Below the pieces are notes generated by a model that had not been told where the DNA came from, did no database searches, and worked only from the letters and a program-made list of their open reading frames with translations. A stretch of 64,000 nucleotides of DNA from a virus (lineage: Duplodnaviria > Caudoviricetes), in IMG/VR virus record IMGVR_UViG_3300046804_002963, positions 1,187 to 65,186 of that record; one strand, 5' to 3'. Below are positions 869 through 43,986 of this stretch, piece after piece. Within the stretch, counting starts at the first letter, position 1; every line of letters starts with the position of its first letter. A program made the position numbers and the translations under genes.

Positions 869-2272
869 TCATGCTGGGGTAGCAAAACCTTTAGCAGATA
901 ACATTCCGTACCAAGTAGCACCACCATCCATAGTTGTGAGTGTTACTATATCAGTATAACCTGCTTGAGTAGATAGAGTAGGACCTGTAGGCGAATATAT
1001 ACCTTCTGCTGTTGGCCAGTATATGGTATTTAATGACCAATCCACTGTTCTACTACCAGTTCCATCCTGTTTTAAATAAATTGATAAAGAGTAATGCTTT
1101 GAGTTAGGAGCTGACATCTGTACTGGAGTAATAGATCTATTAAGAGTCAATTTATAGATATTATAATGTAGAGCATTAATTAATACAGTACCAGAATTTG
1201 TTAATGTATCAAATAACTCTCCGTAACTTTTAAATACAGTATTTGCTGTAGTAGCACCATTAAAATGTACGGTAGATACTCCAATTGGATTAGTTAGTAC
1301 TGCAACGTTTGCAAATATAACGTTAGTTCCGCCGCTGTTTACCATTAAGAAAGTGTTAGCGTAACCAGAATAGCTATCTGGTGTATCTGTTAAGTCAAGA
1401 ATAGATCCGGTAACAGCGCCACCTAAACCAGCAGACCCTTGATAGCCAGTTGGACCAATATCACCAGCTGAACCCTGATAGCCAATAAGTCCTAACGGAC
1501 CTTCAGCTCCAGGAGAACCTGTATAACCAATAGACCCACTATAACCTACTGATCCTAAGTAGCCTGTTATACCTGCAGATCCTTGATAACCTTCTAACCC
1601 TCTTGATCCTGTATAGCCTGCAGAACCTCTAAACCCTGTTGCTCCAGTTGATCCAGTATAACCAGCAGAACCTGCATACCCGTCACCATCAGGTCCTTTT
1701 GAGCCATCATAACCTACTGATCCTTGAACACCTGCAGAACCAATATATCCTGCAGAACCTCTATATCCTTCTACACCGCGTGACCCTGTATAACCAGTAG
1801 TACCAGCTGAGCCTTGATATCCTAGAAAGCCAGAAGAACCGGTATAGCCAGCAGAACCTGAAAAGCCTACTGCACCACGTGATCCTGCATACCCCATCTC
1901 TCCTTTTGATCCAGTATAAGCTATGCCAGGATCACCTGCAGAACCCTTATAACCTAGAGATCCTTGATAGCCCGATGAACCTTGGTACCCTACTCCACCA
2001 ATAGAGCCAACATAACCTACTGAACCTCTATAACCCTCAGAACCTTTATAGCCTGTTGTACCATCAGTACCCTTAGATCCCATATAACCAGTAGCGCCAA
2101 TTGAGCCAGTATACCCAGTATTACCTGTAGAACCAGTAAAACCAGTATACTCTAGTTGACCTTCATACCAGTAGGGACCTTGAGAGCCTAGGTATATAAA
2201 ACTGCCAGATATAGCATTACTGCCATCCGGATTAGTTACATCTATCTGGGATACGAAAATCTTAGTGGTCAT
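869..2272 (-). CDS. Collagen-like (GYxGS repeat) fibre protein with C-terminal beta domain
   Basis: About 245 aa of Gly-X-Y triplets dominated by G[YF]xGS. C-terminus LKQDGTGSRTVDW...DIVTLTTMDGGATWYG is shared with 11073-11804 and 27117-33059. Confidence 0.85.
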   Translation of the reverse strand: MTTKIFVSQIDVTNPDGSNAISGSFIYLGSQGPYWYEGQLEYTGFTGSTGNTGYTGSIGATGYMGSKGTDGTTGYKGSEGYRGSVGYVGSIGGVGYQGSSGYQGSLGYKGSAGDPGIAYTGSKGEMGYAGSRGAVGFSGSAGYTGSSGFLGYQGSAGTTGYTGSRGVEGYRGSAGYIGSAGVQGSVGYDGSKGPDGDGYAGSAGYTGSTGATGFRGSAGYTGSRGLEGYQGSAGITGYLGSVGYSGSIGYTGSPGAEGPLGLIGYQGSAGDIGPTGYQGSAGLGGAVTGSILDLTDTPDSYSGYANTFLMVNSGGTNVIFANVAVLTNPIGVSTVHFNGATTANTVFKSYGELFDTLTNSGTVLINALHYNIYKLTLNRSITPVQMSAPNSKHYSLSIYLKQDGTGSRTVDWSLNTIYWPTAEGIYSPTGPTLSTQAGYTDIVTLTTMDGGATWYGMLSAKGFATPA

Positions 2273-7852: not shown

Positions 7853-7861
7853 TATTGATCC

Positions 7862-8203: not shown

Positions 8204-8226
8204 CTTTCCCTTTCCAGATTGCTATG

Positions 8227-14764: not shown

Positions 14765-15094
14765 TTAAGTTATTTCAGTTCCAAATAAATTAAAGCTTAC
14801 AGAAGAAGTGTTAGCTAATACTGAAACTACATCAGTAGCGCCAAGCGTTATGCCTAATGTAAGTGCAATTGTATCGTTGCTAGGAACTAATGTATCATAA
14901 CTAATGTAGTGAGATGCTGTTACAGTAGCATTTGCAGGTCTTATAGCTACTCTATATGCAGCATTTGCAGCGCCTTGATTACAAATAGTAAGAGTGGAAG
15001 CAATAGAGCTAGTACCTGCAGGAACAGTGTATAATGTAGTAAGAGTATTTACTACCGGGTTAGATTGTCCTAATACTTTATATGAAACTGCCAT
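14765..15094 (-). CDS. Small beta-rich virion structural protein
   Basis: YKVLGQSNP...LYTVPAG...ICNQ...YD..VP.NDT..LTLGITL...FNLFGTEIT; partner-type gene preceding a Gly-rich domain gene. Confidence 0.7.
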   Translation of the reverse strand: MAVSYKVLGQSNPVVNTLTTLYTVPAGTSSIASTLTICNQGAANAAYRVAIRPANATVTASHYISYDTLVPSNDTIALTLGITLGATDVVSVLANTSSVSFNLFGTEIT

Positions 15095-15106
15095 TTTAAA
15101 TAACCT

Positions 15107-16300
15107 TTAAATACCTAAGAATAGGAAAGGATGTATAAACGTAGGAGCATCAGTCCAGTACACATTTCCTGTTTGACCGCTAGAAACTAATACCTGATTA
15201 GTATTACCTAAACTGTTATTTGCCGATACTCTAACTACCGTTAAAGTACTAGTAGAAGTAATATTACCAGAAGTTAAATTATTTATAGTAATACCATTAG
15301 CAACTACGTTGCCAGTTAAAGTTAGAGTTTTTGCAACTAAAGTATTACTTGATGTGATATTATTTGCAGTAATAGCATTTGCACCTAAGTTATTAGCTGA
15401 GATGTAAAGCGAGTTCATACTTGTTGATGCATTTACCGTAGCAGCTAATACCTGACCAAATGATAAGCTACCAGTTACTGTTAAATTACCAGTAGTAATT
15501 CCGCTTGTTACTGTTAGAGTATTAGCTGCAGCTGATCCAGTAACTGATAAAGAAGCACCAGATAAAGAATAAGTAACTGCTAGAGTATTTGCAGATATTG
15601 ATCCTGGAATTGATATGGAGCTAAAATAAGGATTAGGATTAGATGCATCTACCCAAGCACTTGAATCTACATCCTCATAATAAATCTTTAAAGTGCCTTC
15701 TTCACTATTCCACCATAAATCACCAGCAGCAGCTACTGGCGCAGAATTTGAAATAGTCACTGACGCTCCACCGCCACCGCCGCCAGCGCCTGCTGAGCCG
15801 GTATAACCTCTTAAACCTTGATCACCCTTAGAACCAACATAACCTATAGAGCCAGTATATCCAAGATCGCCATATGATCCTGTATACCCAACACCTTGTG
15901 AACCAACATAACCTATGGACCCAGTATATCCTAGTGATCCGGTATATCCTACAGAACCTGTAAATCCTATTGATCCTGTATAACCAACAGAACCATTATA
16001 ACCAGCCGATCCAGCAAAACCTACTGAACCTGTATAACCTGCACCAGTAGAACCTGTATAACCTACACCAGTCGAACCTGTGTATCCTGTTGTACCAAAT
16101 GAACCTGTATAACCAGTACTACCCAATGAACCTGTATAACCAGTACTACCCAATGAACCTGTATAGCCGGCTGATCCAGTATATCCAACTGTAGTAGAAG
16201 AAGCCTGCCAGAATCCTCCAGCAGCAATCCATGTCCAGGATCTACTACCTAGAGTATAAACTTGACCGTTTGTAGGACTATTTGGAAAATTTATTGCCAT
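15107..16300 (-). CDS. Collagen-like (GYTGS) short fibre protein
   Basis: MAINFPNSP N-terminal motif, about 130 aa of GYTGS triplets, APVAAAGDLWWNS...YYED...W knob, and ANNSLGNTNQVL..VYW motif. Confidence 0.85.
   Translation of the reverse strand: MAINFPNSPTNGQVYTLGSRSWTWIAAGGFWQASSTTVGYTGSAGYTGSLGSTGYTGSLGSTGYTGSFGTTGYTGSTGVGYTGSTGAGYTGSVGFAGSAGYNGSVGYTGSIGFTGSVGYTGSLGYTGSIGYVGSQGVGYTGSYGDLGYTGSIGYVGSKGDQGLRGYTGSAGAGGGGGGASVTISNSAPVAAAGDLWWNSEEGTLKIYYEDVDSSAWVDASNPNPYFSSISIPGSISANTLAVTYSLSGASLSVTGSAAANTLTVTSGITTGNLTVTGSLSFGQVLAATVNASTSMNSLYISANNLGANAITANNITSSNTLVAKTLTLTGNVVANGITINNLTSGNITSTSTLTVVRVSANNSLGNTNQVLVSSGQTGNVYWTDAPTFIHPFLFLGI
16100..16165. repeat. Exact 27-bp tandem repeat (about 2.4 copies) in a collagen region
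   Basis: TGAACCTGTATAACCAGTACTACCCAA repeated; encodes GYTGSLGST. Confidence 0.8.
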
Positions 16301-16325
16301 TTAAATTCTTTTGTTAGTATCCAAG

Positions 16326-16333
16326 TATTTATT
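16326..16333 (-). promoter_or_regulatory. Late promoter variant AATAAATA
   Basis: ATAAATA core in the intergenic gap upstream of ATG 16300. Confidence 0.55.
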
Positions 16334-16339
16334 CATATG

Positions 16340-17089
16340 TTAAAATATAATTCTATAAGAACCAGCAGCAGTCCATCTGTATATTCTATAATCACCTGAG
16401 GTAGTAATAGTAGGACTACCAGTAGTATTTGCAATTGGTTCACTTGCTAAATGTCTTAATATAACTGTACCAGTACCACCTTTACCGCCTGCTCCACCAT
16501 TCCACACATTAGGAGCTCCTCCTCCACCAGTACCGTCTGTGCCTGCTCCAGCAGGATACACACCCCCTCCAGCTGATGAAGTTCCACTCATTCCAGATCC
16601 ACCAGGACCTAATCCTACAAAACTTCCTGTTAAATAAGTTCCTTGAGAGACACCACCATTAGGAACATCACCACCGCCCCCAGCACCACCGCCACCTGGA
16701 CTACCTAATGCTTGACTTCCTCCAGAACCACCTGTATTTCCACCACCAGTTGTTATAGTGTCTGCTGTTCCTGCCTGCCCTCCAGTACCATATCTACCAC
16801 CGATTCCACCGCCAGCATAGTAATGATGAAATTGACTGTAACCTCCCGGGTTACCTAATCTTCCATCAGCAACGTTGCCAATTGTAGCTGCTCCACCATT
16901 ACCTACTACTACTGGATAAGGTACTCCTATATCGACACAAACTGTATTAGCAGTTTTTACACCACCTCCTCCACCTCCACCAGCAGTATAATTACCCCCG
17001 TTACCAGCTCCTGAACCACCTCCACCAGCAACGGCCAGATCTACAAATGTAACTCTTGGACGTCCTGCTATAACATTAAAAATAGACAT
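16340..17089 (-). CDS. Glycine-rich (polyglycine) domain protein; probable start ATG 17089
   Basis: MSIFNVIAG...VAGGGGSG...GGKGGTGTVILR...YRIYRWTAAGS. ATG 17089 lies just after the upstream stop, so the ORF-track start at 17140 is unlikely. Confidence 0.8.
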   Translation of the reverse strand: MSIFNVIAGRPRVTFVDLAVAGGGGSGAGNGGNYTAGGGGGGGVKTANTVCVDIGVPYPVVVGNGGAATIGNVADGRLGNPGGYSQFHHYYAGGGIGGRYGTGGQAGTADTITTGGGNTGGSGGSQALGSPGGGGAGGGGDVPNGGVSQGTYLTGSFVGLGPGGSGMSGTSSAGGGVYPAGAGTDGTGGGGAPNVWNGGAGGKGGTGTVILRHLASEPIANTTGSPTITTSGDYRIYRWTAAGSYRIIF

Positions 17090-17091
17090 TA

Positions 17092-20483
<3,392 letters not shown>

Positions 20484-20484
<1 letters not shown>

Positions 20485-26601: not shown

Positions 26602-27105
26602 TTATAAATCTAACAAAGGCCAAATTACTTCTTCTATTGAATTATATTTTGTAGTTATATCTCTTAATTCCTGTCTATATGCTAACAATTTTTGATATTG
26701 CTCTGCAGTAATAGAAGTATTAATATTTAGTTCTAGCTGATCACGGTGTCTAATAACCATCCAATCAGTTTCCCATAACTTATTAGATCTTACTTCCTGT
26801 AAAGTAGGAAGAGGTGCTAATGCTCCATAACCGTTATCATAAGCAGCTTGAATTATTTTATCTCTATTATTAAGAATCCATTGAAATTGTTCTTGCTCTA
26901 TGCCTGATTGAACTACACCTCCTGGTAGTTCAACAGTAAAAAAATTTCTTACAGGTTCAAAAGACAGATTAATTATTTCATAATTAAACCCTGTTAGAGA
27001 AGCAAAATCATCATAAGATCTAAAAAGATGATCTACACCTTCTAATCTAACATACGCATGATTGTTAAATTTATCTAAAGTTATACATTCATATATTTCA
27101 CTCAT
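26602..27105 (-). CDS. Tail fibre assembly chaperone
   Basis: C-terminal R...L.ETDWMVIRHRDQ...YQKLLAYRQELRDI...WP, typical of phage tail assembly chaperones. Confidence 0.75.
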   Translation of the reverse strand: MSEIYECITLDKFNNHAYVRLEGVDHLFRSYDDFASLTGFNYEIINLSFEPVRNFFTVELPGGVVQSGIEQEQFQWILNNRDKIIQAAYDNGYGALAPLPTLQEVRSNKLWETDWMVIRHRDQLELNINTSITAEQYQKLLAYRQELRDITTKYNSIEEVIWPLLDL

Positions 27106-27116
27106 TATTATACCTC

Positions 27117-30100
27117 TTAGAATCTAGCTGCTAAGGAACCAAACCAAGAAGTTCCTCCATCAGTTGTAAACAATGTTACTGCATCTGTTTTAGTTGCTGC
27201 AGTAGAAAGAACTGGCGCTACTCCACCATTCCATCTAATAGTGCCTGGCCATGACACTAATCTACCACCAGTAGCATCTTGTGTAATAAGAAGAGTCACG
27301 TTGAAAGCTCTACCAGCAGATAAGCCAGTGGTTGATAGTGTAATAGGAACAGTTGCTGCTGCTAGAGTAAGTGATTGAGTATCTCCTAATGTAATATCAA
27401 TAGCAGTAGATGTTGTTACTGATCCTATTGCTCTTACTAATTCACTATAATATTGGAAATTAATAGCACCAGTAAATGTATATGAAGAAGCTGGGTTAAA
27501 AGCTCCCTGCGGCCCTGTAGGACCTGTGGCGCCTTGCGCACCTGTTGGACCTGTGGCGCCTTGCGCACCTGTTGGACCAGTAGAGCCCTGCGCACCTTGG
27601 GCACCAGTAGCTCCCTGTGGGCCTTGTGGACCAATAGGACCAACATCACTTATATTCCACGCAGCAATAGTTCCAGAACCACCAATAAAATCAACGTTTA
27701 CTATTAATGTAGTGCCAGAGAATGATGTTATTACACCATCCATAAAGTTTGTAGGTGTTGCAGACGATGCAACACGAACACGCTGTCCTGCAGCAAATGC
27801 GCTGGCAGTAGATGCTAGATTAGTGGTAAATGTTTGAGAGCCAGTTGCTATAGCAACTGATGTGGTACTAGTAAGACCGCGATAACCAATACCCTGCGCC
27901 CCTTGTGGTCCCTGCGCCCCTTGAGCTCCTGTAGCTCCTTGGGCTCCAGTTGCACCTTGTGGTCCTTGAGGTCCTGTAGCACCTAAAGTACCACTAACAC
28001 CTTGAGCTCCCTGTGAACCAGTATAACCTACTACACCCTGAGGACCAGTAGGACCAGTTGCACCTTGCGCACCTGTTGGGCCTGTAGCACCTTGAGCTCC
28101 CTGTGCTCCAGTTGGACCGGTTGAACCAGTTGGGCCGGCTGGACCAGTAGAACCTTGAGCACCTTGGGCGCCAGTAACACCTTGTGCTCCAGTTGCACCT
28201 TGGGCGCCTGTAGGTCCAGTTGGACCAGTAGAACCTTGCGCGCCAGTAGCACCCTGTGCGCCAGTTGATCCTTGAACACCTTGTGGGCCTTGAGCGCCTC
28301 TAGAACCTGTGTAGCCAGCATATTCTAAGAAGATTTCTGATACAGCCCACAGATCATTATTATTAGATGAAAATGTTGATTGATTATATCTTAAATAAAC
28401 ACCAGTAGCTCCTTTTGCACCTACAGGAATTATTACTGTATTAGTATACCATATACCTGGGGTGCTATCAGTAGCTATAATTGTATGTGCTGTTGTCCAG
28501 CTAGATTTATCTAAAGAATATTCAATAGTTACATCTTCACCAGATTCAGGAGCATTCCCCCACACTCCGTCACCAGCAACATAAGAAAATTTAAAGTTTA
28601 CAGCATTTTGTAAATATGATTTATAGTTTGAATAAATGTATCTATTTGCTTCACCGTTTAATACAGCTATTAAACTAAAGCCGTTCATATCTAAGCTAGA
28701 GCCAGTTCCATCTACATCGTTGTAAATTTGTATGAAGCTAGCTATACCATTTGCAACATATTGTCCTTCTCCAAAGCTTAAGCCCTTGAAAGAGGATATA
28801 GCAGGTAGCCCTCTAGAACCTGTGTAGCCTGTATTACCTTGTGGTCCCTGAATACCCTGTGCACCCTGTGCACCTGTAAGTCCAGTAGTACCTTGAGTAC
28901 CTTGAGCACCTTGTGGTCCCTGCGCACCCTGCGCACCTTGTGCTCCAGTTATCCCGGTAGGTCCAGTTGAACCAGTATCACCTTTTGATCCAGTATAACC
29001 AGCTGAACCAGTATAACCTATTGATCCTGTATAACCAGTAGATCCAGTATAGCCAGTAGATCCATCATAACCTGTGATACCTCTAGACCCAGTATATCCT
29101 ATTGATCCTGTATATCCTACAGAGCCTGTATAACCTTCTGAACCAGTATAACCAATAGATCCTGTATAACCTTCTGAACCTCTATAACCTATATTACCAT
29201 CTAAACCTGCAGACCCAGTATATCCTTCAGACCCAGTATAACCGGAAGAACCTGTAAATCCTGCTGAACCAGTATCACCTCTATCACCAGTTCTTGCAAA
29301 AGTAATGATAGTGTTAGTACTATCAGTAAAATACTCATCTCCGCTTACATAAGAAATAGGAACAGAGAAATATTCTTCAGTATAATTATCATATAATGTG
29401 CCTACAATAGCAAACATGCTAAAGTGTGCAGCATTTGTTAGATCAGTTATCTTGAAATGACCTTTTATTTGAGAAGTAGAATCATCTATAGTTCTCAAAT
29501 AAGAAGATATCTCATCTCCGTATGCATCATAATAACTAATATAGAGTGTATTAGCATCACCAAAAGGTTGATCATTTATTGTAAAAAAACCATTTGCAGG
29601 TGCTATTACACCTAAATCAGCATCTAAATTATAGTGAAAAGATGCACCGCCAAATTGACCTGTAGGTCCTTGAACTCCTTGAGGACCAATTGCTCCTCTA
29701 GAACCAACATAACCTAAGTCACCTCTTGAGCCAGTATAGCCTCTTGAGCCTGTAAATCCTATAGAACCAACATCTCCCTGTGGTCCTATAACCCCCTGAG
29801 ATCCTACAAAACCTGTATCACCTCTTGAGCCAGTAAATCCTTGACGAGATGCTACACCCTTCTCAACATTTCTTACTTCTACATAAGTGCCTTCAGGTGG
29901 TTCAAAAAGTAATACTAATGTATTACCAGAAATAGTATAAGTTACGTCTGGTACTTGAATAATACCATTTACTGATACAATGGCGTTATTTTGACTTCCT
30001 ATCCATTCAGCAAGAGAGAAAGTATTTTGTCCTGCTGTAGTAATAAATGATTCAGATGTAGAATTAGCTGCACCTGTTGAACCTGTATAACCAGTATCAC

Positions 30101-33059
30101 CTTGAGATCCTGTATAGCCTGCACCTCTAGAGCCTGTATATCCTATAGATCCAGTATAACCGTCGCGACCAATATATCCAGGTGAACCGGTATATCCAAT
30201 GGCAGCATATTCACCACTTGAACCAGTATAGCCGGCGCCCGCTGACCCGGTGTAACCAAATTCACCCTGTGATCCAACGTAACCTACATCACCTCGTTCA
30301 CCTATAGGTCCTATATCACCTTGTGAACCAACATAGCCTACATCACCTTGTGAGCCAACATACCCAACAGATCCTGTGTAACCTATTGATCCTGTATAAC
30401 CTAATGACCCATCGTAACCGGTGTTACCTTTTAGACCTTGTGACCCAGTAAAGCCAACAGATCCAAAGTAACCATGACTACCAGTATACCCAACAGAACC
30501 ATCATAACCAGTTCCAACAGAACCTGTATAACCTAATGAGCCTGTATAACCAGATGAACCAGTAAAACCAACAGAACCTGTATAGCCAGTGTCACCGATA
30601 TCACCTGTTCTTGCAAAAGTAATTACTACATCATCATATGCATTCCAATAATGAATACCATCAATAAATCCTACTGGAAGTCTATAACTAGTTCCTGTTT
30701 TAGTTGAATGACCTACTATAGTAAATAGAGAATACAATTCTCTATCTTCATATCTTCTAGTAATAGTAAAGTGACCTTTGATACTAGAAGTAGAATCATC
30801 AACAATTGCTAGATAGTCAGTTATATCTGTATTAGATATATCTTGAGTATCAATAACTAAAATAGTTGCTTCTGCAACATTAGCACTATTTAATTTTAAG
30901 TAGCCAGGTAATGTGTCTGATAAGTCAGTATTTGCATCAAAGTAGAACTGGAATGCTGCACCACCAAATGTACCTGGAGGTCCTTGTGAGCCGGTATAAC
31001 CTATCGGACCTGCTACATCACTTGCTGAACCAGTATAACCAGTAGAACCTGTATAGCCTTCACTACCAGCAAAGCCTCTCGATCCAGTAAACCCTGCGCC
31101 AGAAGATCCTGTAAACCCTCTAAACCCAATTACACCTTGTAGGCCGCGCGAACCAGTATATCCAAGTGAACCAGTATAACCTACGTCACCTATTGAACCA
31201 GTATATCCAGTTTCACCAGTTTCACCAAACGAGCCTGCTGCTTTTTCTACGTTTCTTACTTCTATAAATGTTCCCTGAGGGGCATCAAAGAGAAGGTGTA
31301 AAGTATTACCAGATATAACATAACTAAGATCTGGTACTTGTACAATACCGTTTACTGTTACTATAGCGTTATTTTGACTAACTATACTTTCAAATAATGA
31401 AAAAGTATTTTGACCATAATAATCTAAAGAAAAAGCTTGTGAGGTAGCATTCGTCATACCACCTGAGCCGGTATAACCGGTAGAGCCAGTAAAGCCCTTA
31501 GAACCTGTGTAACCTTTAGAACCAGTATAACCAGCACCAGTAGAACCAGTAAAGCCAGTCTCACCTATGAATAGATTTCTTAAACCTGAAATTGCCCAGT
31601 TATCAGAAGTACCTCCAGAACTATTAATTTGTTTAATTCTGAGATAGACACCTCCTGGAACTCTCATTTCTACTGGAGGTTCGATTCTTCTTTCTACCCA
31701 AACATTCCCTGCTACGTTTGCAGGGAAAACATTATCAACACTTATCCAGGTATTACTATTAACACTATATTGAATTGTTATACCTTCAGGTACTCCACCT
31801 GGAGGATTTTGATCTGGAGCATCTCCCCATACAGCAGCTTTATTAACATAATAAGAGAATAGATGTACGTCGGTAAAAGATCTTCTTATGTTAGAAGTAA
31901 TTACACGATCTTCTGTGAAACCTTCTAGCTTACCGAATAGAAATACCTTACCTAGGTAGTCGGTACTCATACCATCAATTAAGCTCGGGTAGTCAGTACT
32001 TACCGCAGAGCCAAGAGTAAGTATATCTAATGTTTCTGGATCTAGTAAGTAATCAGAAGATACACCTGGTGTGCCTCTTGATCCAGTAAAACCTATTGTT
32101 CCTTGTGAACCTCTTGAACCCGTATAACCAGTAGAGCCGCCATACCCTGCACCTGTAGAACCAGCATACCCTCTTAGACCTTGCTGACCGGTTGATCCAG
32201 TATATCCTAAAGATCCTGCATAACCTGTAGATCCAACATAACCAGAAGACCCAGTATAGCCTGCCTCTTCAAAAAATCTTACTTCTACATCTGCACCAAC
32301 AGCAGGTAAGTTAATGAATGTAAGAGTGCTACCATTTGCAGTATAGTCTGTGTCTGGTACTTGAATAAGACCATTTACAGATACAAAGAGATGTAAAGCG
32401 TTTTCTGTTTCTACATCAAGTGTGTATTCGGAAGAACCGTCTGCTGTTATAACTTGATTTCTTGTTGGAGCTCCTGCCGGGCCTCTTTCACCTTGAGAAC
32501 CAACATAACCTGAACCTCGAGGACCTTGTGTACCTGCAGGTCCTCTAGAACCTACGTAACCTATAGAGCCAGTAAATCCGGATAGTCCTTGTGAACCTTC
32601 TGATCCAGTATAACCTCGAGGACCACCTGGATCACCTTGTATACCTTTAGAACCTTGATAACCGGTTAACCCTTGTGAACCTCTATATCCTGTTTCACCA
32701 AAATATCTTATTTCAATATCAGCAGTGGCAGGAGGAGGTGAGTTAAAGAATATTAAATTGCCGCTTACATTATAATCTTCGGCAGGTAAAAGTACTAGAC
32801 CATTGGATATAACCATTATATGAACAGGGTTATCAATAACCTCTGTCATATTAAATTCAGTAGTTAATCCGTCACCAATAAATCTATCACTTTTTCTAGG
32901 AGCGCCTGGACCTCCTCGAGAACCAGTAAACCCGGAAGAACCAGTATACCCTACTTCTATATCAACTTGAAGCCAACGCTCACCATCATACTCCCATGTA
33001 TTGCCGTTAATATCGACAATATCACCTGGACTAGGATTATCTGGAAATACAATTGCCAT
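27117..33059 (-). CDS. Giant mosaic collagen-like fibre protein (1980 aa)
   Basis: GYTGS and GAQ/GPT collagen tracts interspersed with NGL.Q.P domains, two TFARTGD domains, two reelin-like domains and a C-terminal [11 protein letters not shown]...DGGTSWFG domain. Confidence 0.88.
27521..27578. repeat. Exact 27-bp tandem repeat (about 2 copies) in a GC-richer collagen tract
   Basis: GACCTGTGGCGCCTTGCGCACCTGTTG repeated; encodes GPTGAQGAT. Confidence 0.75.
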
Positions 33060-33062
33060 TTC

Positions 33063-35243
33063 TTACCTTACAACCGTAATATAAACATAAGCGCTATCAT
33101 AAGCACCAAAATTAGAAGAATTTATTGAAATATCAAAACAAGACGTGTTAGGTATTGTGTTGTAAGATAAATTAACCATTACCGGATCTGTTGAATTAGA
33201 TTCAGCTCTACACATGCCTGTAACTATATAATTTTCATCTGTTTGCTTATTATCAAAGAATATTCTATAACTACCTATATTTAGTTTTGTTACATAAGCA
33301 ATATTATTATTAGAACGCATAACTTGATTAGAATTATTAGAACCGGTTCCGTTAAAATTTACCCATGCTTGTAAACCAGATGTAGTACCTTTAGATCCTG
33401 TATAACCTATACCTGTTGATCCTGTATATCCAATTGAACCTGAGTAACCTAGATCCCCTCTTGATCCATCATAACCGGTTGAACCAGCATATCCTATAGA
33501 ACCTGTATAGCCTTTACCGCCAAATCCTTGAGAACCAGTATAACCTACTGCTGCATATGCACCACTAGAACCAGTAAAGCCTTTAGCGCCTCTAGGTCCT
33601 TTAGCAATACCTACCCAGTTATTAGCGTCTTCATAAAAAATATTTAAAATACCGTTATCTGTATCCCACCAGAACGTTCCGTTGTTTGGAGTGGGAGGAC
33701 CAGAATTACTCATATAAACTACTGTATAACCTTCACGACCAGCTGAACCTCTATAACCGGTTGAACCTCTATAACCGGTTGAACCAAAATAGCCAGCCTC
33801 TGCAAAGTATCTTACTTCTATATCAGAATTAATAGCAGGCTCGCTAATAAAATCGATATATGATACTTCAGTGTTTACATTATAATCAGTAAACGGCATC
33901 TGTAGTAGACCGTTTACTGTGACTAGAATAGTAACTGGATTGGTAACTGTATAGTTTAAAGGATAAGAAATAGATCCATTAGCAACAAAGAATTCAACGG
34001 TACTAGGAGCTCCTATCGGGCCCACAGAACCAGTATAACCTCTTCCTCCAGCAATGCCACTACTTCCAGTATGTCCAATAGAACCAGTATATCCTATTCC
34101 AACTGAACCTGTGTACCCTGCTCCAATAGAACCAGTATATCCTAAAGAGCCTGTATATCCTGTTGTGCCTCCTGGTGCACCTGCTGAGCCTTGATAACCT
34201 ACTGACCCCTTATATCCTACAGAACCTGTATAACCTGCAGGTGAGAAATATTTTATTTCTATATCAGAATTTAATGGTGGAGCATTAAAAAGTAGTAGCT
34301 TATATTGATCAGGGGCATTATAATTTACTGTGTAATCAATATCTGCTAATTGTACTAATCCATTTACTATTACGAATATGTGAAATGAATTAGATACAGG
34401 GAGTGATAAGTTATATTCAGTAATAGAACCGTTACTTACAAATTGTTCGCATAATGTAGGTGCACCAGCTGGACCCATTTGTCCTCTAGAGCCGGTATAA
34501 CCTGGAAAACCTCGAGGTCCTAGCGATCCGGTAAAACCAGTTGATCCCATATAACCGGTAGGACCTCTATCACCTACTGCTCCTACAGATCCTCTGTATC
34601 CGGTTGAACCTGGTACACTTCCAAAGTATCTTATTTCTATATCTGAATTATTCTCTGGTACGTTTATAAAAGTGATAATATCATCTTCAACCGTATAATC
34701 CAGAGATGGTAGTTGCATAAGTCCGTTAACAACTACAAATATGTACTCTGGTTTACCAGTATTTTCTAATAGATTATACGTATCACTTCCGTCAGCAACA
34801 AAAAATTGAGTATCAGTGGGACGTCCTGTTAAACCTCTTGACCCGGTATACCCAATACCAGTGTCACCTCTATCGCCTTTTGAACCTGTATATCCAGTAG
34901 GACCACCTGGAGCTCCTGGTGCACCTTCTGACCCTTGATATCCTTCATCGCCTCTAGAACCTTGATATCCTGGACCTCCTGCTCCTACTGAACCTTGATA
35001 TCCAACAGATCCTGTATAACCAGTATTATTTGCAGCAAAAATTTTTACTTCAATATCTGTTTTATTTACTGGAGGATATACAAAGGTTACAACACCATTA
35101 AAAATGGTGTAATCAATTTCAGCTAACTGTGACAACCCATTCACAATAACAAGCGCACTTTCAGTGCTTACATTACTAGTTAACGTGAATTGAGTGTTGC
35201 TTCCGTTACCTTGAAAATATTGACTGTTAATTACAATGGCCAT
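33063..35243 (-). CDS. Collagen-like fibre protein with four F..[DN]G/NGL.Q domains
   Basis: Four ~65-aa domains ending DIE[IV][RK].F, alternating with GYxGS tracts; C-terminal AWVNFNG...G.Y.I.F domain. Confidence 0.85.
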   Translation of the reverse strand: MAIVINSQYFQGNGSNTQFTLTSNVSTESALVIVNGLSQLAEIDYTIFNGVVTFVYPPVNKTDIEVKIFAANNTGYTGSVGYQGSVGAGGPGYQGSRGDEGYQGSEGAPGAPGGPTGYTGSKGDRGDTGIGYTGSRGLTGRPTDTQFFVADGSDTYNLLENTGKPEYIFVVVNGLMQLPSLDYTVEDDIITFINVPENNSDIEIRYFGSVPGSTGYRGSVGAVGDRGPTGYMGSTGFTGSLGPRGFPGYTGSRGQMGPAGAPTLCEQFVSNGSITEYNLSLPVSNSFHIFVIVNGLVQLADIDYTVNYNAPDQYKLLLFNAPPLNSDIEIKYFSPAGYTGSVGYKGSVGYQGSAGAPGGTTGYTGSLGYTGSIGAGYTGSVGIGYTGSIGHTGSSGIAGGRGYTGSVGPIGAPSTVEFFVANGSISYPLNYTVTNPVTILVTVNGLLQMPFTDYNVNTEVSYIDFISEPAINSDIEVRYFAEAGYFGSTGYRGSTGYRGSAGREGYTVVYMSNSGPPTPNNGTFWWDTDNGILNIFYEDANNWVGIAKGPRGAKGFTGSSGAYAAVGYTGSQGFGGKGYTGSIGYAGSTGYDGSRGDLGYSGSIGYTGSTGIGYTGSKGTTSGLQAWVNFNGTGSNNSNQVMRSNNNIAYVTKLNIGSYRIFFDNKQTDENYIVTGMCRAESNSTDPVMVNLSYNTIPNTSCFDISINSSNFGAYDSAYVYITVVR

Positions 35244-35246
35244 GAG

Positions 35247-35274
35247 TTGCCTAAATTAGCGTAAGATATATAAT
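35247..35274 (+). promoter_or_regulatory. Sigma70-like promoter for the glycosyltransferase (TTGCCT-N16-TATAAT)
   Basis: TTGCCT 35247-35252, TATAAT 35269-35274, SD GAGG 35298-35301, ATG 35307. Confidence 0.55.
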
Positions 35275-35288
35275 AATGATATTCGTTA

Positions 35289-35296
35289 TATTTATG
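35289..35296 (-). promoter_or_regulatory. Late promoter variant CATAAATA driving the collagen fibre genes
   Basis: ATAAATA core about 45 nt upstream of ATG 35243. Confidence 0.55.
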
Positions 35297-35306
35297 TGAG
35301 GTTATT

Positions 35307-38165
35307 ATGGATCGTATTTCGATCGCTTTTCTTGATTTAATTGGTCTAGTCTATGATGGTAATGCTTTAAATAAGCGCGGACTAGGCGGTTCAGAATCAG
35401 CTATTATTCTTATGTCTCGCGAACTCGTCAAGCTTGGTTTTGACGTTACAGTTTTTTGTGCATGCGAAGACGAAGATAATAAGCCTGGTACATATGATGG
35501 TGTAGTCTATAGACCTGTTGAATCGCTTGATAAAAACGACAAATTTGACATTGTAATCTCATCACGCACTGTTATACCATTTGTTCCAGATTGGATGTAT
35601 GAGCATTTTGATACATCTACTGCATTTCCTTGCAAGCTCTTTAAGACTATTCGTGATAATGCAAAGTATCGTATTCTTTGGATGCATGATACATTTTGCC
35701 GTGGTGATCAGGCTATCGAAGATCTTCTAGTGTACGGTAATATTGACAAAATTTTTACACTCAGCGATTTTCATACATCATATATCACTAACTGCGATCA
35801 TGGTTATAAGAAACGTAATTTTGAAGTTCTTAAGAATAAAACATTTATTACTCGCAACGGTGCAGTAAATTATTTTGATGAAGTAGATATTTCACAAAAG
35901 GATCCCTTCCTTTACGTTTATAATGCTTCACTTACTAAGGGAATGATTCCTCTTATTGATTATATTTGGCCAGAATTTAAAAAGCGTGTTCCTGAAGCTA
36001 AACTTAAAGTTATTGGTGGTTACTATAAGTTTCGTTCAGATGGTCCATTAGACGAACAGGGTGTTCGCTGGCATCAGCTTGTTAAAGAACAGAAGTATAA
36101 AGATCTTGATATTGATTTTACAGGTATTATTCCTCAGAGAGAGATTGCTGAAATTCTTTCTCGTGCTTCTTTCTTTGCATACCCTTGCGCTTTTCCGGAA
36201 ACGTTTGGTATCTCTACACTCGAATCACTTCTCTACAATACACCTGTGCTTGGTACACGCTTTGGTGCATTAGAAGAGACAGCTGTAGAAGCTGCATCAT
36301 ATCTTATAGATTATGCTATTGAACCAAATGGTCTGTTTCCTAAGATTGATGCTTCAGAACAAAATGCTAAATTTGTTGAAATGATGGTACGCGCTCATCA
36401 TGATAGTTACTTACACCAACAAAAGCAATACTATTGCAATATTGTTAAAGATGTTGCTGGGTGGGATACAGTAGCTCTTCAATGGAAGCAGCATTTTTAT
36501 AAGTTTTTTAAGAAATACCTTCCTGTAGAAGAATATAGAAACGTATCTTATATTAATGATAAGGTACATCGAGTGTTTGGACGCCGCTTTAGTAATCCTC
36601 AAGAATGGAATACACTTAAAGCTAATAAAGAACGTCACATTAATATTATTAGTCCATTTTATAATGCTGAGAACTATATTAAAGATTTAATTATGTCTAC
36701 TGCAACTCAAGATTATGAGTCGTGGACACATTATCTTTTAGATGACAGTTCAACTGATGATTCATTAAAGGTGCTAGTTGAAACATTAGCAGAATTACCA
36801 GTACATTTGCGAGCCAAATATAAGATTGCAGCATATAAAGAAAATAGAGGTGCAGTACGCAATCAGGTAGATGCTATCCGTGATTGTCAAGATGGCTCTC
36901 TTATCATGTTGCTGGATGGTGATGATTGTCTTATGCCAGACAATAACATTTTTAACTACTATAACCGTCTTTTCGAAAATGATAAGACTGAATATGCTTA
37001 TGGAAGTTGCTGGTCACTAGCAGATAATATACCGCTTATTGCGCAACCATATCCGTTGGAAGTAAGAAGAAATAAGTCTTATCGCACTCACAAATTTAAC
37101 TGGGGTATGCCATACCCACATTTACGAGTATTTCGTAAAGATCTTATCAATAATCTTGAAGACTATCTCTTCCAAGATGAAGCAGGCGAATGGTACCGCG
37201 CAGGTGGCGATAATGCTACTTTCTATAATATTATTGAACAAGCAGATCCAGATAAAATCGTTGCAGTTCAAGATATTTTCTACATTTATAACGATAAAAA
37301 TCCACTAAACGATTATAAAGTTAATGGTGAGATTCAAAACATTAATGCAGGTAAAATTGCTAATCGAGTTTATAAGCAACCTGCTGCAACACCAAGAAAC
37401 GCTGGTAGAAGTAGAAATAATTTAGGAAATTCTGCCAATAACCCACAACCACTTCCAGTTATTGAAATAGATCCTACTATCTCTAGAGTACCTCTCTCAT
37501 TTAAAACAAATGAAGGAAGAGAGAGTATTCAGGATAGTGAAACGGAGGATAGTAATATTACTAAAAAGAAGAAAATATTAATTGCAATCCCTATGGCAAA
37601 ATATATTGAAGTGCAGACATTTAAAGCTGTTTATGATCTTGATGTACCAGATAATGTAGAGACAGTATTTCAATACTTCTATGGTTATAATGTAGACCAG
37701 GTACGTAATCTCATTGCAGATTGGGTAGTCAAAGGAGACTATGATTATCTGTTTGCAGTTGACTACGATATTGCTTTCCCTTCAGATACTCTTACTAAGT
37801 TCCTATCATATGATAAGGACGCAGTTTCAGCTATCTACAAGCAACGTGTACCTGATAGACAAACAATAGAAGTCTTTAAGAAGAATGAACAAGGTGGATA
37901 TTATCATATTCCTTATGATGAACTTAAAGATAAGGGGTTAGTAGAAGTTGACGCATGTGGATTTGGTTGCGTACTTATTAAACGTAAAGTGTTTGAAGAT
38001 ATTGGATATCCTCAATTTGAATACAAGTCTGCAATCAGTCATGAGCATACATTCTCAGAAGATCTTGACTTCTGCAGAAAAGCTACAAATTTAGGATTTA
38101 AGATTTATGCCGATACAAGTGTGATATGTGATCACTACGGCCAATATAATTTTAGAATATCTTAA
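35307..38165 (+). CDS. Three-domain glycosyltransferase (GT4/GT-B + GT2 + GT2-like GT-A)
   Basis: aa ~1-440: GLGGSE, ILWMHD, ETFGISTLE (EX7E). aa ~442-690: IISPFYNAENYI, LLDDSSTDDS, LLDGDD. aa ~753-952: ILIAIP, LFAVDYD, GFGCVLIKRKVFE, SEDLDFC, H near C-terminus. Confidence 0.9.
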   Translation: MDRISIAFLDLIGLVYDGNALNKRGLGGSESAIILMSRELVKLGFDVTVFCACEDEDNKPGTYDGVVYRPVESLDKNDKFDIVISSRTVIPFVPDWMYEHFDTSTAFPCKLFKTIRDNAKYRILWMHDTFCRGDQAIEDLLVYGNIDKIFTLSDFHTSYITNCDHGYKKRNFEVLKNKTFITRNGAVNYFDEVDISQKDPFLYVYNASLTKGMIPLIDYIWPEFKKRVPEAKLKVIGGYYKFRSDGPLDEQGVRWHQLVKEQKYKDLDIDFTGIIPQREIAEILSRASFFAYPCAFPETFGISTLESLLYNTPVLGTRFGALEETAVEAASYLIDYAIEPNGLFPKIDASEQNAKFVEMMVRAHHDSYLHQQKQYYCNIVKDVAGWDTVALQWKQHFYKFFKKYLPVEEYRNVSYINDKVHRVFGRRFSNPQEWNTLKANKERHINIISPFYNAENYIKDLIMSTATQDYESWTHYLLDDSSTDDSLKVLVETLAELPVHLRAKYKIAAYKENRGAVRNQVDAIRDCQDGSLIMLLDGDDCLMPDNNIFNYYNRLFENDKTEYAYGSCWSLADNIPLIAQPYPLEVRRNKSYRTHKFNWGMPYPHLRVFRKDLINNLEDYLFQDEAGEWYRAGGDNATFYNIIEQADPDKIVAVQDIFYIYNDKNPLNDYKVNGEIQNINAGKIANRVYKQPAATPRNAGRSRNNLGNSANNPQPLPVIEIDPTISRVPLSFKTNEGRESIQDSETEDSNITKKKKILIAIPMAKYIEVQTFKAVYDLDVPDNVETVFQYFYGYNVDQVRNLIADWVVKGDYDYLFAVDYDIAFPSDTLTKFLSYDKDAVSAIYKQRVPDRQTIEVFKKNEQGGYYHIPYDELKDKGLVEVDACGFGCVLIKRKVFEDIGYPQFEYKSAISHEHTFSEDLDFCRKATNLGFKIYADTSVICDHYGQYNFRIS

Positions 38166-38368
38166 AAGAAACTAGGAACATCGTTATTAGTTCTTGGCAC
38201 TGTTGGTGTGGTGCCAAGAACATCAGATGCTCTCTGCTTAAGTACAGATAATGTTTCTATAATTCCATTATTATTTTTACAAATTATTTTAGTTTCTAGA
38301 GGTGCAGTTCTAGCAACAGTAACTAAAATATTATCATATTTTCTTATAGTTATTTTAGTATCACGCAT
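38162..38368 (-). CDS. Small hypothetical protein
   Basis: 68 aa, start overlaps the upstream stop (TAATG) in the - strand operon. Confidence 0.55.
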   Translation of the reverse strand: MRDTKITIRKYDNILVTVARTAPLETKIICKNNNGIIETLSVLKQRASDVLGTTPTVPRTNNDVPSFF

Positions 38369-38694
38369 TAGCGTGTTACTCCAGGATTAACTGTTATAAA
38401 ACCTTCAATAATTCTAGAAGTGACATTATTAGCAGACAGTTCTAAATCATATACATATCTTAATTGATTTAATGTTGATGTAGTTTCAGCATTCATAGAT
38501 AATGATATTAGACCAGCTCCTCCATCTACAGTAACATTCATAGATACCGAATTAGAAGAAGTGTATGTTCTTCTTAGTTGAGCTTCTCCGGTATAACCAC
38601 TGATATCAAATATATTACCGTCTTCATCTATAAGATATAAATTGTAGATAAAGTTAGCACCTTGATCGACAATAAGGTTAGTCTTTATTGCCAT
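38368..38694 (-). CDS. Conserved T4-like virion structural protein (NLIVDQGA type)
   Basis: NLIVDQGANF...DISGYTGEAQLR...G.ISLSM...RYVYDLE...RIIEG.ITV.PGVTR. Confidence 0.8.
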   Translation of the reverse strand: MAIKTNLIVDQGANFIYNLYLIDEDGNIFDISGYTGEAQLRRTYTSSNSVSMNVTVDGGAGLISLSMNAETTSTLNQLRYVYDLELSANNVTSRIIEGFITVNPGVTR

Positions 38695-40355: not shown

Positions 40356-40570
40356 TTATTTTTTTCCAAAACCTTTAGTAGTAGCTCTTTAATATCATTC
40401 AAATCATTTTTAATTGATTCTACTTCTTCTTCTACTTTATTTATTTTAGTTGCAGCGTTATGCATTTCAATTAACTTTTTACGCTGCATACGGTACTGTT
40501 CTAAACCATTATCGTCAGTACTTACAACAGTACCTTTATTAATAAATTTCTCAGAATTTTTAGCTAACAT
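40352..40570 (-). CDS. Small coiled-coil protein following VrlC
   Basis: VESIKNDLNDIKELLLKVL heptads; overlaps the next gene by ATGA. Confidence 0.7.
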   Translation of the reverse strand: MLAKNSEKFINKGTVVSTDDNGLEQYRMQRKKLIEMHNAATKINKVEEEVESIKNDLNDIKELLLKVLEKNK

Positions 40571-40573
40571 ATC

Positions 40574-43981: not shown

Positions 43982-43986
43982 ATTAA

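Follow-up and report, generated by a model that had tools for sequence, protein, structure and literature searches.

A three-domain glycosyltransferase gene beside Thr-rich collagen-like fibre genes in a freshwater T4-like phage: a candidate for fibre glycosylation

Results

The DNA analysed here (the window, 64,000 nucleotides) comes from an uncultured freshwater T4-like phage. Its positions 27000-45000 gave no megablast match among 50,697 phage records. Over about 59 kb, baseplate and fibre genes run on the minus strand and only one real gene runs on the plus strand, a glycosyltransferase gene (GT) flanked by T4-type baseplate, tail and fibre genes (Table 1). All other plus strand open reading frames of at least 100 aa between positions 1 and 59400 lie within or overlap minus strand genes. 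A gap of 63 bp (35244-35306) separates GT from the divergent first member of a set of five collagen-like genes. An earlier note on this DNA had described both the lone plus strand gene and its head-to-head neighbour, and the listing of open reading frames bears it out on both counts.

Downstream, GT converges on a gene for a 108-aa protein from a family whose annotation partly refers to fibre assembly; open reading frames of about 110 aa occupy the equivalent position in seven relative loci. The window also codes for proteins of the Laminin_G_3/Gly_rich_2 type (2316..5147, 8227..11073 and 16340..17140). Five of about 40 genes in the region are collagen-like, and to find one of them next to a given gene by chance would not be rare.

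Table 1. Features at the locus and the other collagen-like genes of the window.
Feature	Position	Strand	Basis
Collagen-like protein, 467 aa	869..2272	-	PF01391 9.1e-34; 7 G[YF]TGS
Collagen-like protein, 397 aa	15107..16300	-	PF01391 7.4e-15; 14 G[YF]TGS
Collagen-like fibre protein, 1130 aa	17092..20484	-	PF01391 1.2e-88
Tail-fibre assembly chaperone	26602..27105	-	PF16778; phrog_188, phrog_8716
Collagen-like fibre protein, 1980 aa, with discoidin/reelin-like globular inserts	27117..33059	-	PF01391 1.3e-103, PF21471, PF00754
Collagen-like fibre protein, 726 aa, head-to-head with GT	33063..35243	-	PF01391 2.9e-25
Sigma-70-like promoter (predicted), TTGCCT-N16-TATAAT	35247..35274	+	32 nt upstream of the GT start codon; 10/12 consensus matches
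Late-promoter-like CATAAATA	35289..35296	-	46 nt upstream of the 726-aa collagen gene
Three-domain glycosyltransferase (GT), 952 aa, soluble (predicted)	35307..38165, stop codon included	+	ORF, Pfam, PHROG, AlphaFold2
GT domain 1, GT-B fold, GT4-like, EX7E E298..E306	35307..36596, aa 1-430	+	PF00534, PF13692, Foldseek
GT domain 2, GT2 (GT-A fold), DGDD at 537-540	36624..37361, aa 440-685	+	PF00535, profile matches
GT disordered linker	37371..37559, aa 689-751	+	pLDDT <50 throughout
GT domain 3, A197-like GT-A, D819xD821 and S917-E-D919	37560..38162, aa 752-952	+	phrog_1574, PDB 2c0n
Conserved small protein, 108 aa, convergent with GT	38368..38694	-	phrog_1084 7.6e-25, phrog_3304 6.5e-19

The earlier note read GT as a fusion of one GT4-type and two GT-A domains, a description that Pfam, Foldseek and invariant motifs all uphold. 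Domain 1 is a GT4-type GT-B domain by its Pfam matches above the gathering score (PF00534 at residues 199-336, 37.6 bits, cut-off 26.4; PF13692, 37.1 bits, cut-off 27), its EX7E motif and its two-Rossmann fold. By Foldseek it matches 6kih, 3c4q and 2gej, with TM scores by target of 0.65-0.69 (0.62-0.69 when 7qsg is included). Domain 2 combines a DXD motif with a match to PF00535 (residues 447-614, 57.6 bits, cut-off 23.3, 1.9e-15), which places it in GT2; its profile matches are the N-terminal domain of TagF (3l7i), GalT1 (5hea) and 5tze/5tz8. Domain 3 has no Pfam match over residues 752-952. It matches phrog_1574 at 2.6e-23 and, by fold and DXD motif, is a GT-A domain like STIV A197 (PDB 2c0n; Foldseek E 1.6e-10, TM by target 0.69, 22% identity; profile E 7e-4). 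The Atlas clusters nearest to it are 79-100% viral. The structural model (AlphaFold2, mean pLDDT 79.2) is of the whole chain, and the fold ranks of domains 2 and 3 are drawn from it.

Across 22 aligned homologues (51-58% identity) the residues E298..E306, D537-G-D-D540, D819/D821 and S917-E-D919 are invariant. Because all three transferase domains are intact, the enzyme could have the capacity to build an oligosaccharide of several sugars. GT has no membrane segment, as no 19-residue window reaches a Kyte-Doolittle value of 1.6. We rejected a named NCBIfam equivalog for GT, every match being far below its cut-off. Three riverine metatranscriptome runs contain 7 contig pieces in all whose sequence is identical to that of the GT gene, and DNA carry-over is possible. 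These RNA-library contigs cover GT and none of the fibre genes and are uninformative on fibre expression.

The collagen-like proteins are Pro-poor and rich in hydroxyl groups, with Thr at Yaa and Ser at Xaa, as had been proposed before. In 699 triplets from the five proteins, Thr fills 35% of Yaa positions (27-42% in the individual proteins), Ser 33% and Tyr 23% of Xaa positions, and Pro only 6% of Xaa and less than 3% of Yaa positions. The repeat type is G-Y-T-G-S-x, with 143 copies of G[YF]TGS in total: 54 in the 1980-aa protein (282 triplets), 52 in the 1130-aa protein (209 triplets, 42% Thr at Yaa), 16 in the 726-aa protein (84 triplets, 27% Thr at Yaa) and the remainder in the two shorter ones. 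At the DNA level, the window has 19 copies of a pattern for GYTGSxGYTGS, and 100 shuffles gave 0. Thr at Yaa is also common in collagens of phages that do not carry this GT (47% in CRP-114, 22% in W70). With tblastn the 1130-aa protein had 1288 matching records, which reflect generic collagen similarity and do not discriminate. A GYTGS-rich piece of 118 aa matched 9 Staphylococcus phage records at 30-36% coverage, a search that is uninformative about GYTGS in cultured phages because the low-complexity filter was on.

The GT family counts at least 1853 clusters (90% identity), every one of them from phage-sized metagenome contigs, none of which is longer than 570 kb. A search of 185,579 species genomes with its two most conserved motifs confirmed no relative, and no entry among 50,697 phage records contains as much as 80% of GT. 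The six carriers that are at least 90% complete all have a T4-type capsid gene. Identity within the three-domain core stays at about 50% among GT-bearing T4-like lineages (170-380 kb), with many residues invariant. Twelve of the 14 relative loci scanned have an FkbM methyltransferase, either fused to GT or in the next gene; the domain is missing from the GT of the window and from that of one relative. At all 25 representative loci GT lies among late structural genes (fibres, neck, capsid), and a single one of them, L072, has replication or nucleotide-metabolism genes, on one side only. Homologues of domain 3 were found in four cultured cyanophages, three of which (S-TIM5, S-SKS1 and S-SRM01) have no PF01391 match and no collagen gene. 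In the cultured cyanophage S-CAM7, fibre genes for collagen with Thr at Yaa (gp217, gp218, gp222 and gp223) lie between an annotated glucosyltransferase and a domain-3 homologue (30% identity, E 2e-13), gp215 and gp224 being the flanking pair.

Of 23 informative clusters, 8 have GT and a collagen-like gene head-to-head; they come from several deep branches of the GT tree. In one further cluster the collagen-like gene is 863 bp away. In the other 14, where collagen adjacency is lost, GT has Laminin_G_3 or Gly_rich_2 fibres, neck genes or ribonucleotide reductase beside it. At the level of genomes the association is broader. When contigs of at least 30 kb were picked solely by the GYTGSxGYTGS DNA motif, 22 of 28 carried the GT family, including 5 of 5 that were at least 90% complete; the six without GT are 11-64% complete. 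Two motif-bearing contigs, labelled as giant virus or other (L156, L118), were outside the GT search. Conversely, the GYTGS motif is present in four of five large GT-bearing contigs in which the two genes are not adjacent.

Neither GT nor GYTGS occurs in ten control T4-like records, a small set. Five are neutral-marker contigs, one of them a complete 162-kb T4-like genome: four come from a sample drawn through gp15 (80 loci, nearly all on contigs below 45 kb) and L085 was added. The other five are cultured or SAG-derived records of the Kyanoviridae type. A synteny control through the neighbouring 977-aa structural protein gave 2 loci, too few to use. The association between GT and GYTGS collagen that the earlier note proposed to look for is therefore found. 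It may stem from common descent and not from function, since every complete carrier is a T4-like phage.

GT homologues are preceded by sigma-70-type promoters more often than other genes are (12 of 25 versus 14 of 231; Fisher p 1.9e-7), and the promoter call for GT itself rests on consensus and comparison. The exact T4 late motif is found opposite the GT strand at 9 of 25 homologous loci and on the GT strand at 0 of 25. In the window, the minus strand carries CATAAATA in front of the 726-aa collagen gene, which we take to be a late promoter from the T4 consensus; over the whole window the motif TATAAATA is not enriched (9 found versus 14.1 expected). Early transcription of GT, by host RNA polymerase in its unmodified form, is probable. 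The promoters upstream of GT, together with the lack of late motifs on its strand, argue that it is not co-regulated with the fibre genes.

Discussion

Our preferred reading is that GT glycosylates the phage's own collagen fibres. We give it a probability of roughly 0.4, with the gene neighbourhood as the sole pointer to the acceptor. The earlier note had already suggested fibre glycosylation, and part of its case has become stronger: the three domains are intact, the protein has no membrane segment and the association with GYTGS collagen is real. Other results weaken it, namely the early-type promoter, the 14 of 23 clusters in which the genes are not adjacent and the collagen-free cyanophages that carry domain 3.

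If the fibres are the acceptor, GT would be a cytoplasmic, phage-specific enzyme with three active sites in series. Transcribed early by the host polymerase, it would be in place by the time expression of the late fibre genes begins. Before assembly or in its course, GT could then attach to the fibre proteins a short oligosaccharide, about three sugars long at most, with one domain starting the chain and the other two extending it. In most relatives the FkbM methyltransferase might cap the glycan. The likeliest acceptors would be the hydroxyls of Thr (Yaa) and Ser (Xaa) in the Pro-poor G-Y-T-G-S-x tracts. We infer which molecule and residue accept the glycan, how many sugars it has and of what kind, when GT acts, and what the glycan might do for the helix or as a shield. 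A bolder version is more doubtful: a phage-restricted, multi-site glycosyltransferase would O-glycosylate Thr and Ser of these fibres, and the glycan would both coat the fibre and substitute for hydroxyproline in keeping the helix stable. No bacteriophage has yet been described as having such "glycocollagen", which on this view would be widespread among T4-like phages of aquatic habitats.

The main rival explanation, which we consider unlikely, is that GT remodels the host envelope. An early enzyme could extend or cap a glycan on the surface of the host (LPS O-chain, capsule or S-layer) from the cytoplasmic side, which would block superinfection by rival phages or keep progeny off cell debris. 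GT would then sit among fibre genes because receptor-binding and receptor-modifying genes travel together. The sigma-70-type promoters and the lack of late motifs on the GT strand fit this explanation. Enzymes that make O-polysaccharides are similar to multi-domain GT4/GT2 proteins with a methyltransferase, the nearest NCBIfam names for GT are cell-wall polysaccharide transferases (all far below cut-off), HldE-like sugar-nucleotide genes adjoin GT at one relative locus and the domain-3 homologue of S-TIM5 lies among host-like auxiliary genes. It is also how the glycosyltransferases of the tail-fibre region of pelagimyophages have been read (PMC7029224). However, neither GT nor its neighbours provide a membrane segment, flippase, transporter or ligase, and Pfam scans of the window proteins and of the relatives' neighbours contain no Gtr-type O-antigen module (GtrA/GtrB/GtrC-like membrane proteins). 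No relative was confirmed in cellular genomes. A core with about 50% identity across T4-like lineages is hard to square with variable host O-antigens, and GT tracks a repeat type that the phage itself encodes.

It is also conceivable, if improbable, that GT modifies another part of the virion, such as a Laminin_G_3 lectin-type or Gly_rich_2 fibre, a neck or whisker protein or the capsid, and that collagen adjacency is incidental synteny. In a co-directional clade of 7 clusters, a large Laminin_G_3 and/or Gly_rich_2 protein is encoded just upstream of GT or beyond one short open reading frame, and such proteins are present in the window too. GT abuts the neck genes gp13/14/15 at three loci, is near the capsid gene at two, and at two lies 2 kb from a gene for a protein with 34% Thr. 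These neighbours vary between clades, though, whereas GYTGS collagen recurs at the genome level.

A third alternative, that GT assembles several sugars on a modified base in the phage DNA in the manner of the T-even glucosyltransferases, would agree with an early-type promoter, as expected of DNA-modifying enzymes, and with the GT-B fold that domain 1 shares with T4 alpha-glucosyltransferase (PDB 1ya6, rank 47, TM by target 0.57), but it is very improbable, as that match is generic to the fold, GT lies among structural genes and not in replication or nucleotide modules (one side of L072 excepted), and known DNA glycosylation needs far less than three transferase domains and a sugar methyltransferase. 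That phage glycosyltransferases often act on DNA, as one review states (PMC12619734), counts in its favour.

If GT does glycosylate the fibres, then in many abundant aquatic T4-like phages (170-380 kb) the fibres that recognise the host would be modified by the phage itself, through an enzyme family without cellular relatives. Virus-encoded virion glycosylation would then extend from chloroviruses, mimiviruses and mycobacteriophages to phage collagen-like fibres. It would also be a second natural case of sugars in place of hydroxyproline, the first being the cuticle collagen of Riftia. Compact multi-domain transferases of this kind could serve to make glycosylated collagen-like materials. The similar arrangement in S-CAM7, which is cultured, leaves the general idea open to bench testing.

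Comparison with known systems

One of the systems closest to GT is A064R of the chlorovirus PBCV-1. It is a soluble, cytoplasmic, early protein with two glycosyltransferase domains and a methyltransferase, and it builds the terminus of the capsid glycan (PMC9614988). Like GT it is a soluble chain of several transferase domains, and its glycan is placed on a structural protein of the virus itself, as we propose for GT. Relatives of GT have the order of glycosyltransferases followed by methyltransferase, of which the GT of the window lacks the last part. In contrast to GT, A064R belongs to a virus of eukaryotic algae, acts on the N-linked glycan of the major capsid protein and lacks a GT-B domain; the PDB matches listed for GT include none to it by sequence or fold.

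For the collagen there is a bacterial parallel. SgtA of Clostridioides difficile is encoded beside bclA3 and O-GlcNAcylates Thr in GPT collagen repeats, as demonstrated in vitro and with a mutant (PMC7157674). As described, a gene for a GT-A-type transferase there directly adjoins a collagen-like gene with Thr at Yaa, just as in the window. The differences are that BclA3 is on the surface of a spore, that SgtA has a single GT-A domain and TPR repeats, and that its substrate is a Pro-rich GPT repeat and not a Pro-poor GYTGSx repeat. No TPR family is among the Pfam matches of GT. BclA of Bacillus is a comparable collagen system.

Mimivirus has genes for collagen-like proteins and also for an enzyme that adds sugars to them (L230/R699; PMC9614988). 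The tandem GT-A part of the GT model aligns with R699 (9e92), LH3 (6fxr) and COLGALT1 (9evk), with TM scores of 0.15-0.32 and an rmsd above 20 A, so that the resemblance is only the generic one of tandem GT-A domains. The L230 system and the animal LH3/COLGALT1 system also differ in that hydroxylysine glycosylation requires a lysyl hydroxylase. Pfam scans of 31 window proteins gave no 2OG-Fe(II) oxygenase or lysyl hydroxylase, and PF13640 (2OG oxygenase) genes lie beside GT only at three relative loci.

STIV A197 has its fold and DXD motif in common with domain 3 and differs in being a stand-alone protein of an archaeal virus; to our knowledge its acceptor is unproven too. Mycobacteriophages decorate virion proteins with glycosyltransferases of their own (Freeman et al. 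2023, as cited in PMC12619734). There, capsid and tail-tube C-termini of actinobacteriophages are modified, and collagen has no part in that account.

Another comparison is with the pelagimyophages, whose glycosyltransferases in the tail-fibre hypervariable region were interpreted as modifiers of host O-chains (Zaragoza-Solas et al. 2020; PMC7029224). They are aquatic and T4-like and have glycosyltransferases among tail-fibre genes, some with collagen repeats. Unlike GT, these enzymes are mainly GT8, and the article's passages on them mention neither a three-domain family nor a link with GYTGS. If our reading of GT is correct, it bears on the annotation of the glycosyltransferases in phage fibre regions generally, which are now read as modifiers of the host O-antigen.

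Results

Everything that the earlier note had observed here was confirmed, from the open reading frame and the head-to-head gap to the domains, motifs and collagen composition. The 952-aa glycosyltransferase (GT) is the only real gene on the + strand between positions 1 and 59,371; other + strand ORFs of at least 100 aa are embedded in - strand genes. By PHROG and Pfam naming, the - strand carries T4-type baseplate, hub, tube and fibre genes, encoding gp6-, gp25-, gp5-, gp48- and gp53-like proteins, Laminin_G_3 and Gly_rich_2 fibres, a fibre with an S74 chaperone domain and tail-fibre assembly chaperones. In one of its proteins a Hint/intein-like segment apparently interrupts the sequence (Hom_end_hint 5.3e-6, PT-HINT 6.3e-4, each under its Pfam cut-off). 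The window covers nearly all of its source contig (linear, 65,186 bp, viral in IMG/VR, about 40% complete by CheckV). No near-identical record occurs among 50,697 deposited phage genomes; judging by run labels, near-identical DNA comes from freshwater, lagoon and riverine samples.

Coordinates of features in the window, in the GT protein (residues) and in compared loci (L-handles)
Feature	Position	Strand	Description
Collagen-like ORF	869..2272	-	
Collagen-like ORF	15107..16300	-	
Collagen-like ORF	17092..20484	-	
Collagen-like ORF	27117..33059	-	
Collagen-like ORF	33063..35243	-	726 aa, divergent, 63 bp from GT
GT	35307..38165	+	952 aa
GT domain 1			GT-B fold, GT4 type; PF00534 + PF13692; EX7E at E298/E306
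GT domain 2			GT2; PF00535 (1.9e-15); DGDD at 537-540
Linker before domain 3	residues 689-751		disordered
GT domain 3	after linker		phrog_1574 (2.6e-23); D819xD821
TTGCCT-N16-TATAAT	63-bp spacer	+	ends 32 nt before GT start codon
GAGG ribosome site	63-bp spacer		GT strand
CATAAATA, late-promoter-like	35289..35296	-	46 nt before collagen gene
Inverted repeat	38190-38221		perfect 11-bp stem, loop ~10 nt, T-run on neither strand; in 202-bp spacer of convergent GT and 108-aa genes
phrog_358, C-terminal half	40574-43981	-	1135 aa; Hint/intein-like segment at residues ~438-585
phrog_358, N-terminal half	43987-46920		gene preceding 40574-43981
L054, split enzyme	3921-6791		487- and 466-aa ORFs, break within GT2 domain
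L016, PF13640	9098-10000		2OG-Fe(II) oxygenase
L030, PF13640	5845-7065		2OG-Fe(II) oxygenase
L072, PF13640	13447-14013		2OG-Fe(II) oxygenase
L071, downstream of GT	15044-16534		cytidylyltransferase-like, PfkB kinase, cupin/mannose-6-phosphate-isomerase genes
L063, Thr-rich protein	7170-10268		1032 aa
L081, Thr-rich protein	7186-10284		1032 aa
L253, phage P19250A	21390-24995		281 Gly-X-Y triplets in annotated tail length tape-measure gene
L342, cyanophage S-CAM7	168000-188000 (NC_031927.1)		collagen-like fibre genes and flanking GT genes

The GT is, as had been claimed, a fusion of a GT4-type and two GT-A domains. Their catalytic motifs are intact, and none of them varies among 22 aligned homologues (51-58% identity to the window's GT). 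By Foldseek, domain 1 resembles sucrose-phosphate synthase, MshA and PimA, at TM by target 0.62-0.69. Domain 3 has no Pfam match and resembles the STIV glycosyltransferase A197 (PDB 2c0n; E 1.6e-10, TM by target 0.69). The GT sequence has no membrane-like segment.

Counting over the 699 Gly-X-Y triplets of the five collagen-like ORFs bore out Thr at Yaa (35%) and Ser at Xaa (33%); Xaa is Tyr in 23%, Yaa is Lys in 6% and Pro is rare. G[YF]TGS occurs 143 times across these ORFs, and the window's DNA holds 19 GYTGSxGYTGS patterns versus 0 in 100 shuffles. Three cultured phages without the GT have other collagen types (P19250A G-Y-S, CRP-114 G-P-T/G-P-Q, W70 G-P-Q/G-P-T). Since phages without the enzyme carry Thr-Yaa types, Yaa-Thr is not special to this system; its distinctive feature is the Pro-poor GYTGSx type. 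In the Methylophilaceae phage P19250A the triplets follow G-[YFI]-S, 80% of Yaa being Ser, and form a distinct proline-free, hydroxyl-rich collagen.

An IMG/VR scan confirmed 82 GT relatives, for which 80 loci were retained (46-62% identity, mostly full length). Among 5.8 billion proteins the family has at least 1853 clusters at E <=1e-10; the best 120 are all metagenomic, from contigs no longer than 570 kb, with purely automatic names. No phage record among the 50,697 contains at least 80% of the GT, a search for its two most conserved motifs in 185,579 prokaryote species, each represented by one genome, confirmed no relative, and the nearest Atlas clusters of domain 3 are 79-100% viral. The family is modular: a short form of about 870-970 aa (the window's type), forms of about 1120-1150 and 1350-1390 aa with a C-terminal FkbM methyltransferase, a long form of about 1560-1620 aa (most metagenome proteins with FkbM; the 1578-aa L080 has a second GT-B domain and no FkbM match) and a split form, with domain 3 and FkbM on a gene of their own after the GT-B/GT2 gene. 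FkbM (PF05050) is fused to the GT (L002, L043, L059, L024, L071) or is the next gene (L026, L039, L052, L044, L007, L072) in 12 of 14 relative loci scanned; it is in neither the window's GT nor L054. In L054, 68% identical over the first 482 residues, the split of the enzyme may stem from a frameshift or a sequencing error, or may be real. In L016, L030 and L072 a 2OG-Fe(II) oxygenase gene directly adjoins the GT or the neighbouring collagen gene, a hint that some lineages combine hydroxylation with glycosylation; there, Lys at Yaa is a further candidate site. No such gene was found among the window proteins scanned with Pfam. The genes just downstream of the GT in L071 resemble an HldE-type module for supplying sugar nucleotides.

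Genes were called in 81 loci, and grouping the GT proteins at 90% identity gave 28 clusters including the window. In eight (the window, L007, the L034 and L042 groups, L052, L054, L059 and L062) a divergent collagen-like gene lies immediately upstream, with a gap of 42-119 bp. In one (the L029 group) it lies 863 bp off with two short ORFs between; 14 have no adjacent collagen gene, six of them with a collagen-like ORF 2-9 kb off within the fetched flanks, and in five the flank is too short for scoring. In a maximum-likelihood tree built from the first ~700 residues of 25 representatives, head-to-head collagen genes occupy several deep branches (window and L054; L007; L039/L043/L062; L059/L052). 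Most non-adjacent arrangements fall into two well-supported clades, of which one is co-directional (7 clusters, support 100/100). Hence, adjacency looks old or recurrent, yet lost more than once. Part of it is plain block synteny, since the head-to-head group also shares a conserved downstream block of small genes, one of which encodes a ~110-aa phrog_1084 protein. In non-adjacent loci, the GT has as neighbours genes for large Laminin_G_3 and/or Gly_rich_2 proteins, the neck (gp13/14/15) or the capsid and, once, for ribonucleotide reductase. Two such loci (L063, L081) have, about 2 kb from the GT, a protein of 34% Thr and 11% Ser without Pfam matches.

Co-occurrence extends beyond adjacency. 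All five large GT contigs (179-383 kb) without an adjacent collagen gene contain PF01391 genes, and four contain 9-28 GYTGS-coding motifs (reversed control pattern 0); the exception is 52% complete. Conversely, GYTGSxGYTGS matched at least 167 IMG/VR stretches, and the GT family is present (all E <=1e-166) in 22 of the 28 contigs of 30 kb or more examined, three of which already belonged to the GT-derived set. All five contigs with at least 90% completeness are among the 22; the six without GT are 11-64% complete. For at least 16 of the 22 carriers, subtracting coordinates places a listed motif no more than 10 kb from the GT. The control sets are small and non-random: contigs retrieved with gp15 or the 977-aa structural neighbour as neutral markers, among them a 162-kb genome that is complete and has terminal repeats, gave GT 0/5, GYTGS 0/5 and any collagen 1/5, and cultured or SAG-derived Kyanoviridae-type records gave GYTGS 0/5 and collagen 1/5. 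The genomic association that the earlier note had wanted checked is therefore present.

Common descent can still explain this co-occurrence, since every carrier at least 90% complete is T4-type (Gp23 capsid gene in 6/6). Their Gp23 scores form three tiers (~1e-150, 1e-97 and 1e-82) and so suggest that these T4-like phages belong to three deep sublineages; no unrelated phage group with both GT and GYTGS collagen appeared among the genomes examined.

The spacer between GT and collagen gene carries promoter-like sites on both strands. With 19 such sites in a 4-kb region versus 18.3 expected, one consensus match by itself means little. Across 25 representative loci, a match of at least 10/12 lies within 90 nt upstream of 12/25 GT genes versus 14/231 other genes of at least 100 aa (Fisher p 1.9e-7, which overstates independence because the loci are related). 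L002, L044 and L071 have a perfect TTGACA-N16/17-TATAAT. The T4 late motif TATAAATA is upstream on the GT strand in 0/25 and on the opposite strand in 9/25. We infer that the GT is an early gene, transcribed by the host polymerase, inside a late operon. Seven contig pieces of 151-290 nt in three riverine RNA libraries match parts of the GT gene exactly (window 35331-38119) and are compatible with transcription in nature; DNA carry-over is the alternative.

Discussion

Our results partly support the proposal of a multi-sugar glycan on the fibres. The association is real and the three-domain build suits such a glycan; the fibres are a candidate acceptor, suggested by that association. Three intact domains on one soluble chain with a flexible linker could build an oligosaccharide stepwise, and the terminal methyltransferase of most relatives would cap it. 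Judged by its sequence, the enzyme thus fits a short, defined, capped oligosaccharide rather than a polymerase role.

What would the glycan be attached to? First, phages whose genomes differ greatly in size share a conserved core, and the two-motif search confirmed no cellular relative; both points favour a phage-encoded acceptor. Second, GYTGS collagen steadily accompanies the GT and often lies head-to-head with it, which points to the phage's own GYTGS collagen fibres. We tentatively give these fibres a probability of about 0.4. Against them count the domain-3 homologues of S-TIM5, S-SKS1 and S-SRM01, all three without collagen genes.

In S-TIM5 this homologue sits among host-like auxiliary genes, as would suit remodelling of host glycans. 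Early timing suits that role too, and modification of the host O-chain is how one study reads glycosyltransferases in the same region of aquatic T4-like phages (PMC7029224). We consider host remodelling less likely than the fibres, and their strongest competitor. Another virion protein would also be phage-encoded; given the company of GYTGS, it is a less probable acceptor again. DNA modification likewise suits early expression and is improbable, and something else takes the remainder. Timing leaves the function undecided: virion glycan, host remodelling and DNA modification fit it equally well.

The cultured Synechococcus cyanophage S-CAM7 has four collagen-like fibre genes (Yaa Thr in 29-57% of triplets) flanked by two GT genes. 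Its gp224, an annotated glucosyltransferase, is dissimilar to the window's GT (BLASTP), and gp215 is a domain-3 homologue (30% identity over 152 aa, E 2e-13). This is an independent parallel arrangement and a possible bench system for fibre glycosylation.

The full-text literature, with few subscription journals covered, held no account of the GT family or of a glycosylated collagen-like phage fibre. Two known systems resemble parts of the proposal. For SgtA, encoded beside bclA3, experiments have proven that it modifies the Thr of Gly-Pro-Thr repeats with O-GlcNAc (PMC7157674); there, as in the window, the transferase gene adjoins the collagen gene. The glycosyltransferases that build the capsid glycan of PBCV-1 are soluble and early-expressed (PMC9614988), as we predict for the enzyme of the window.
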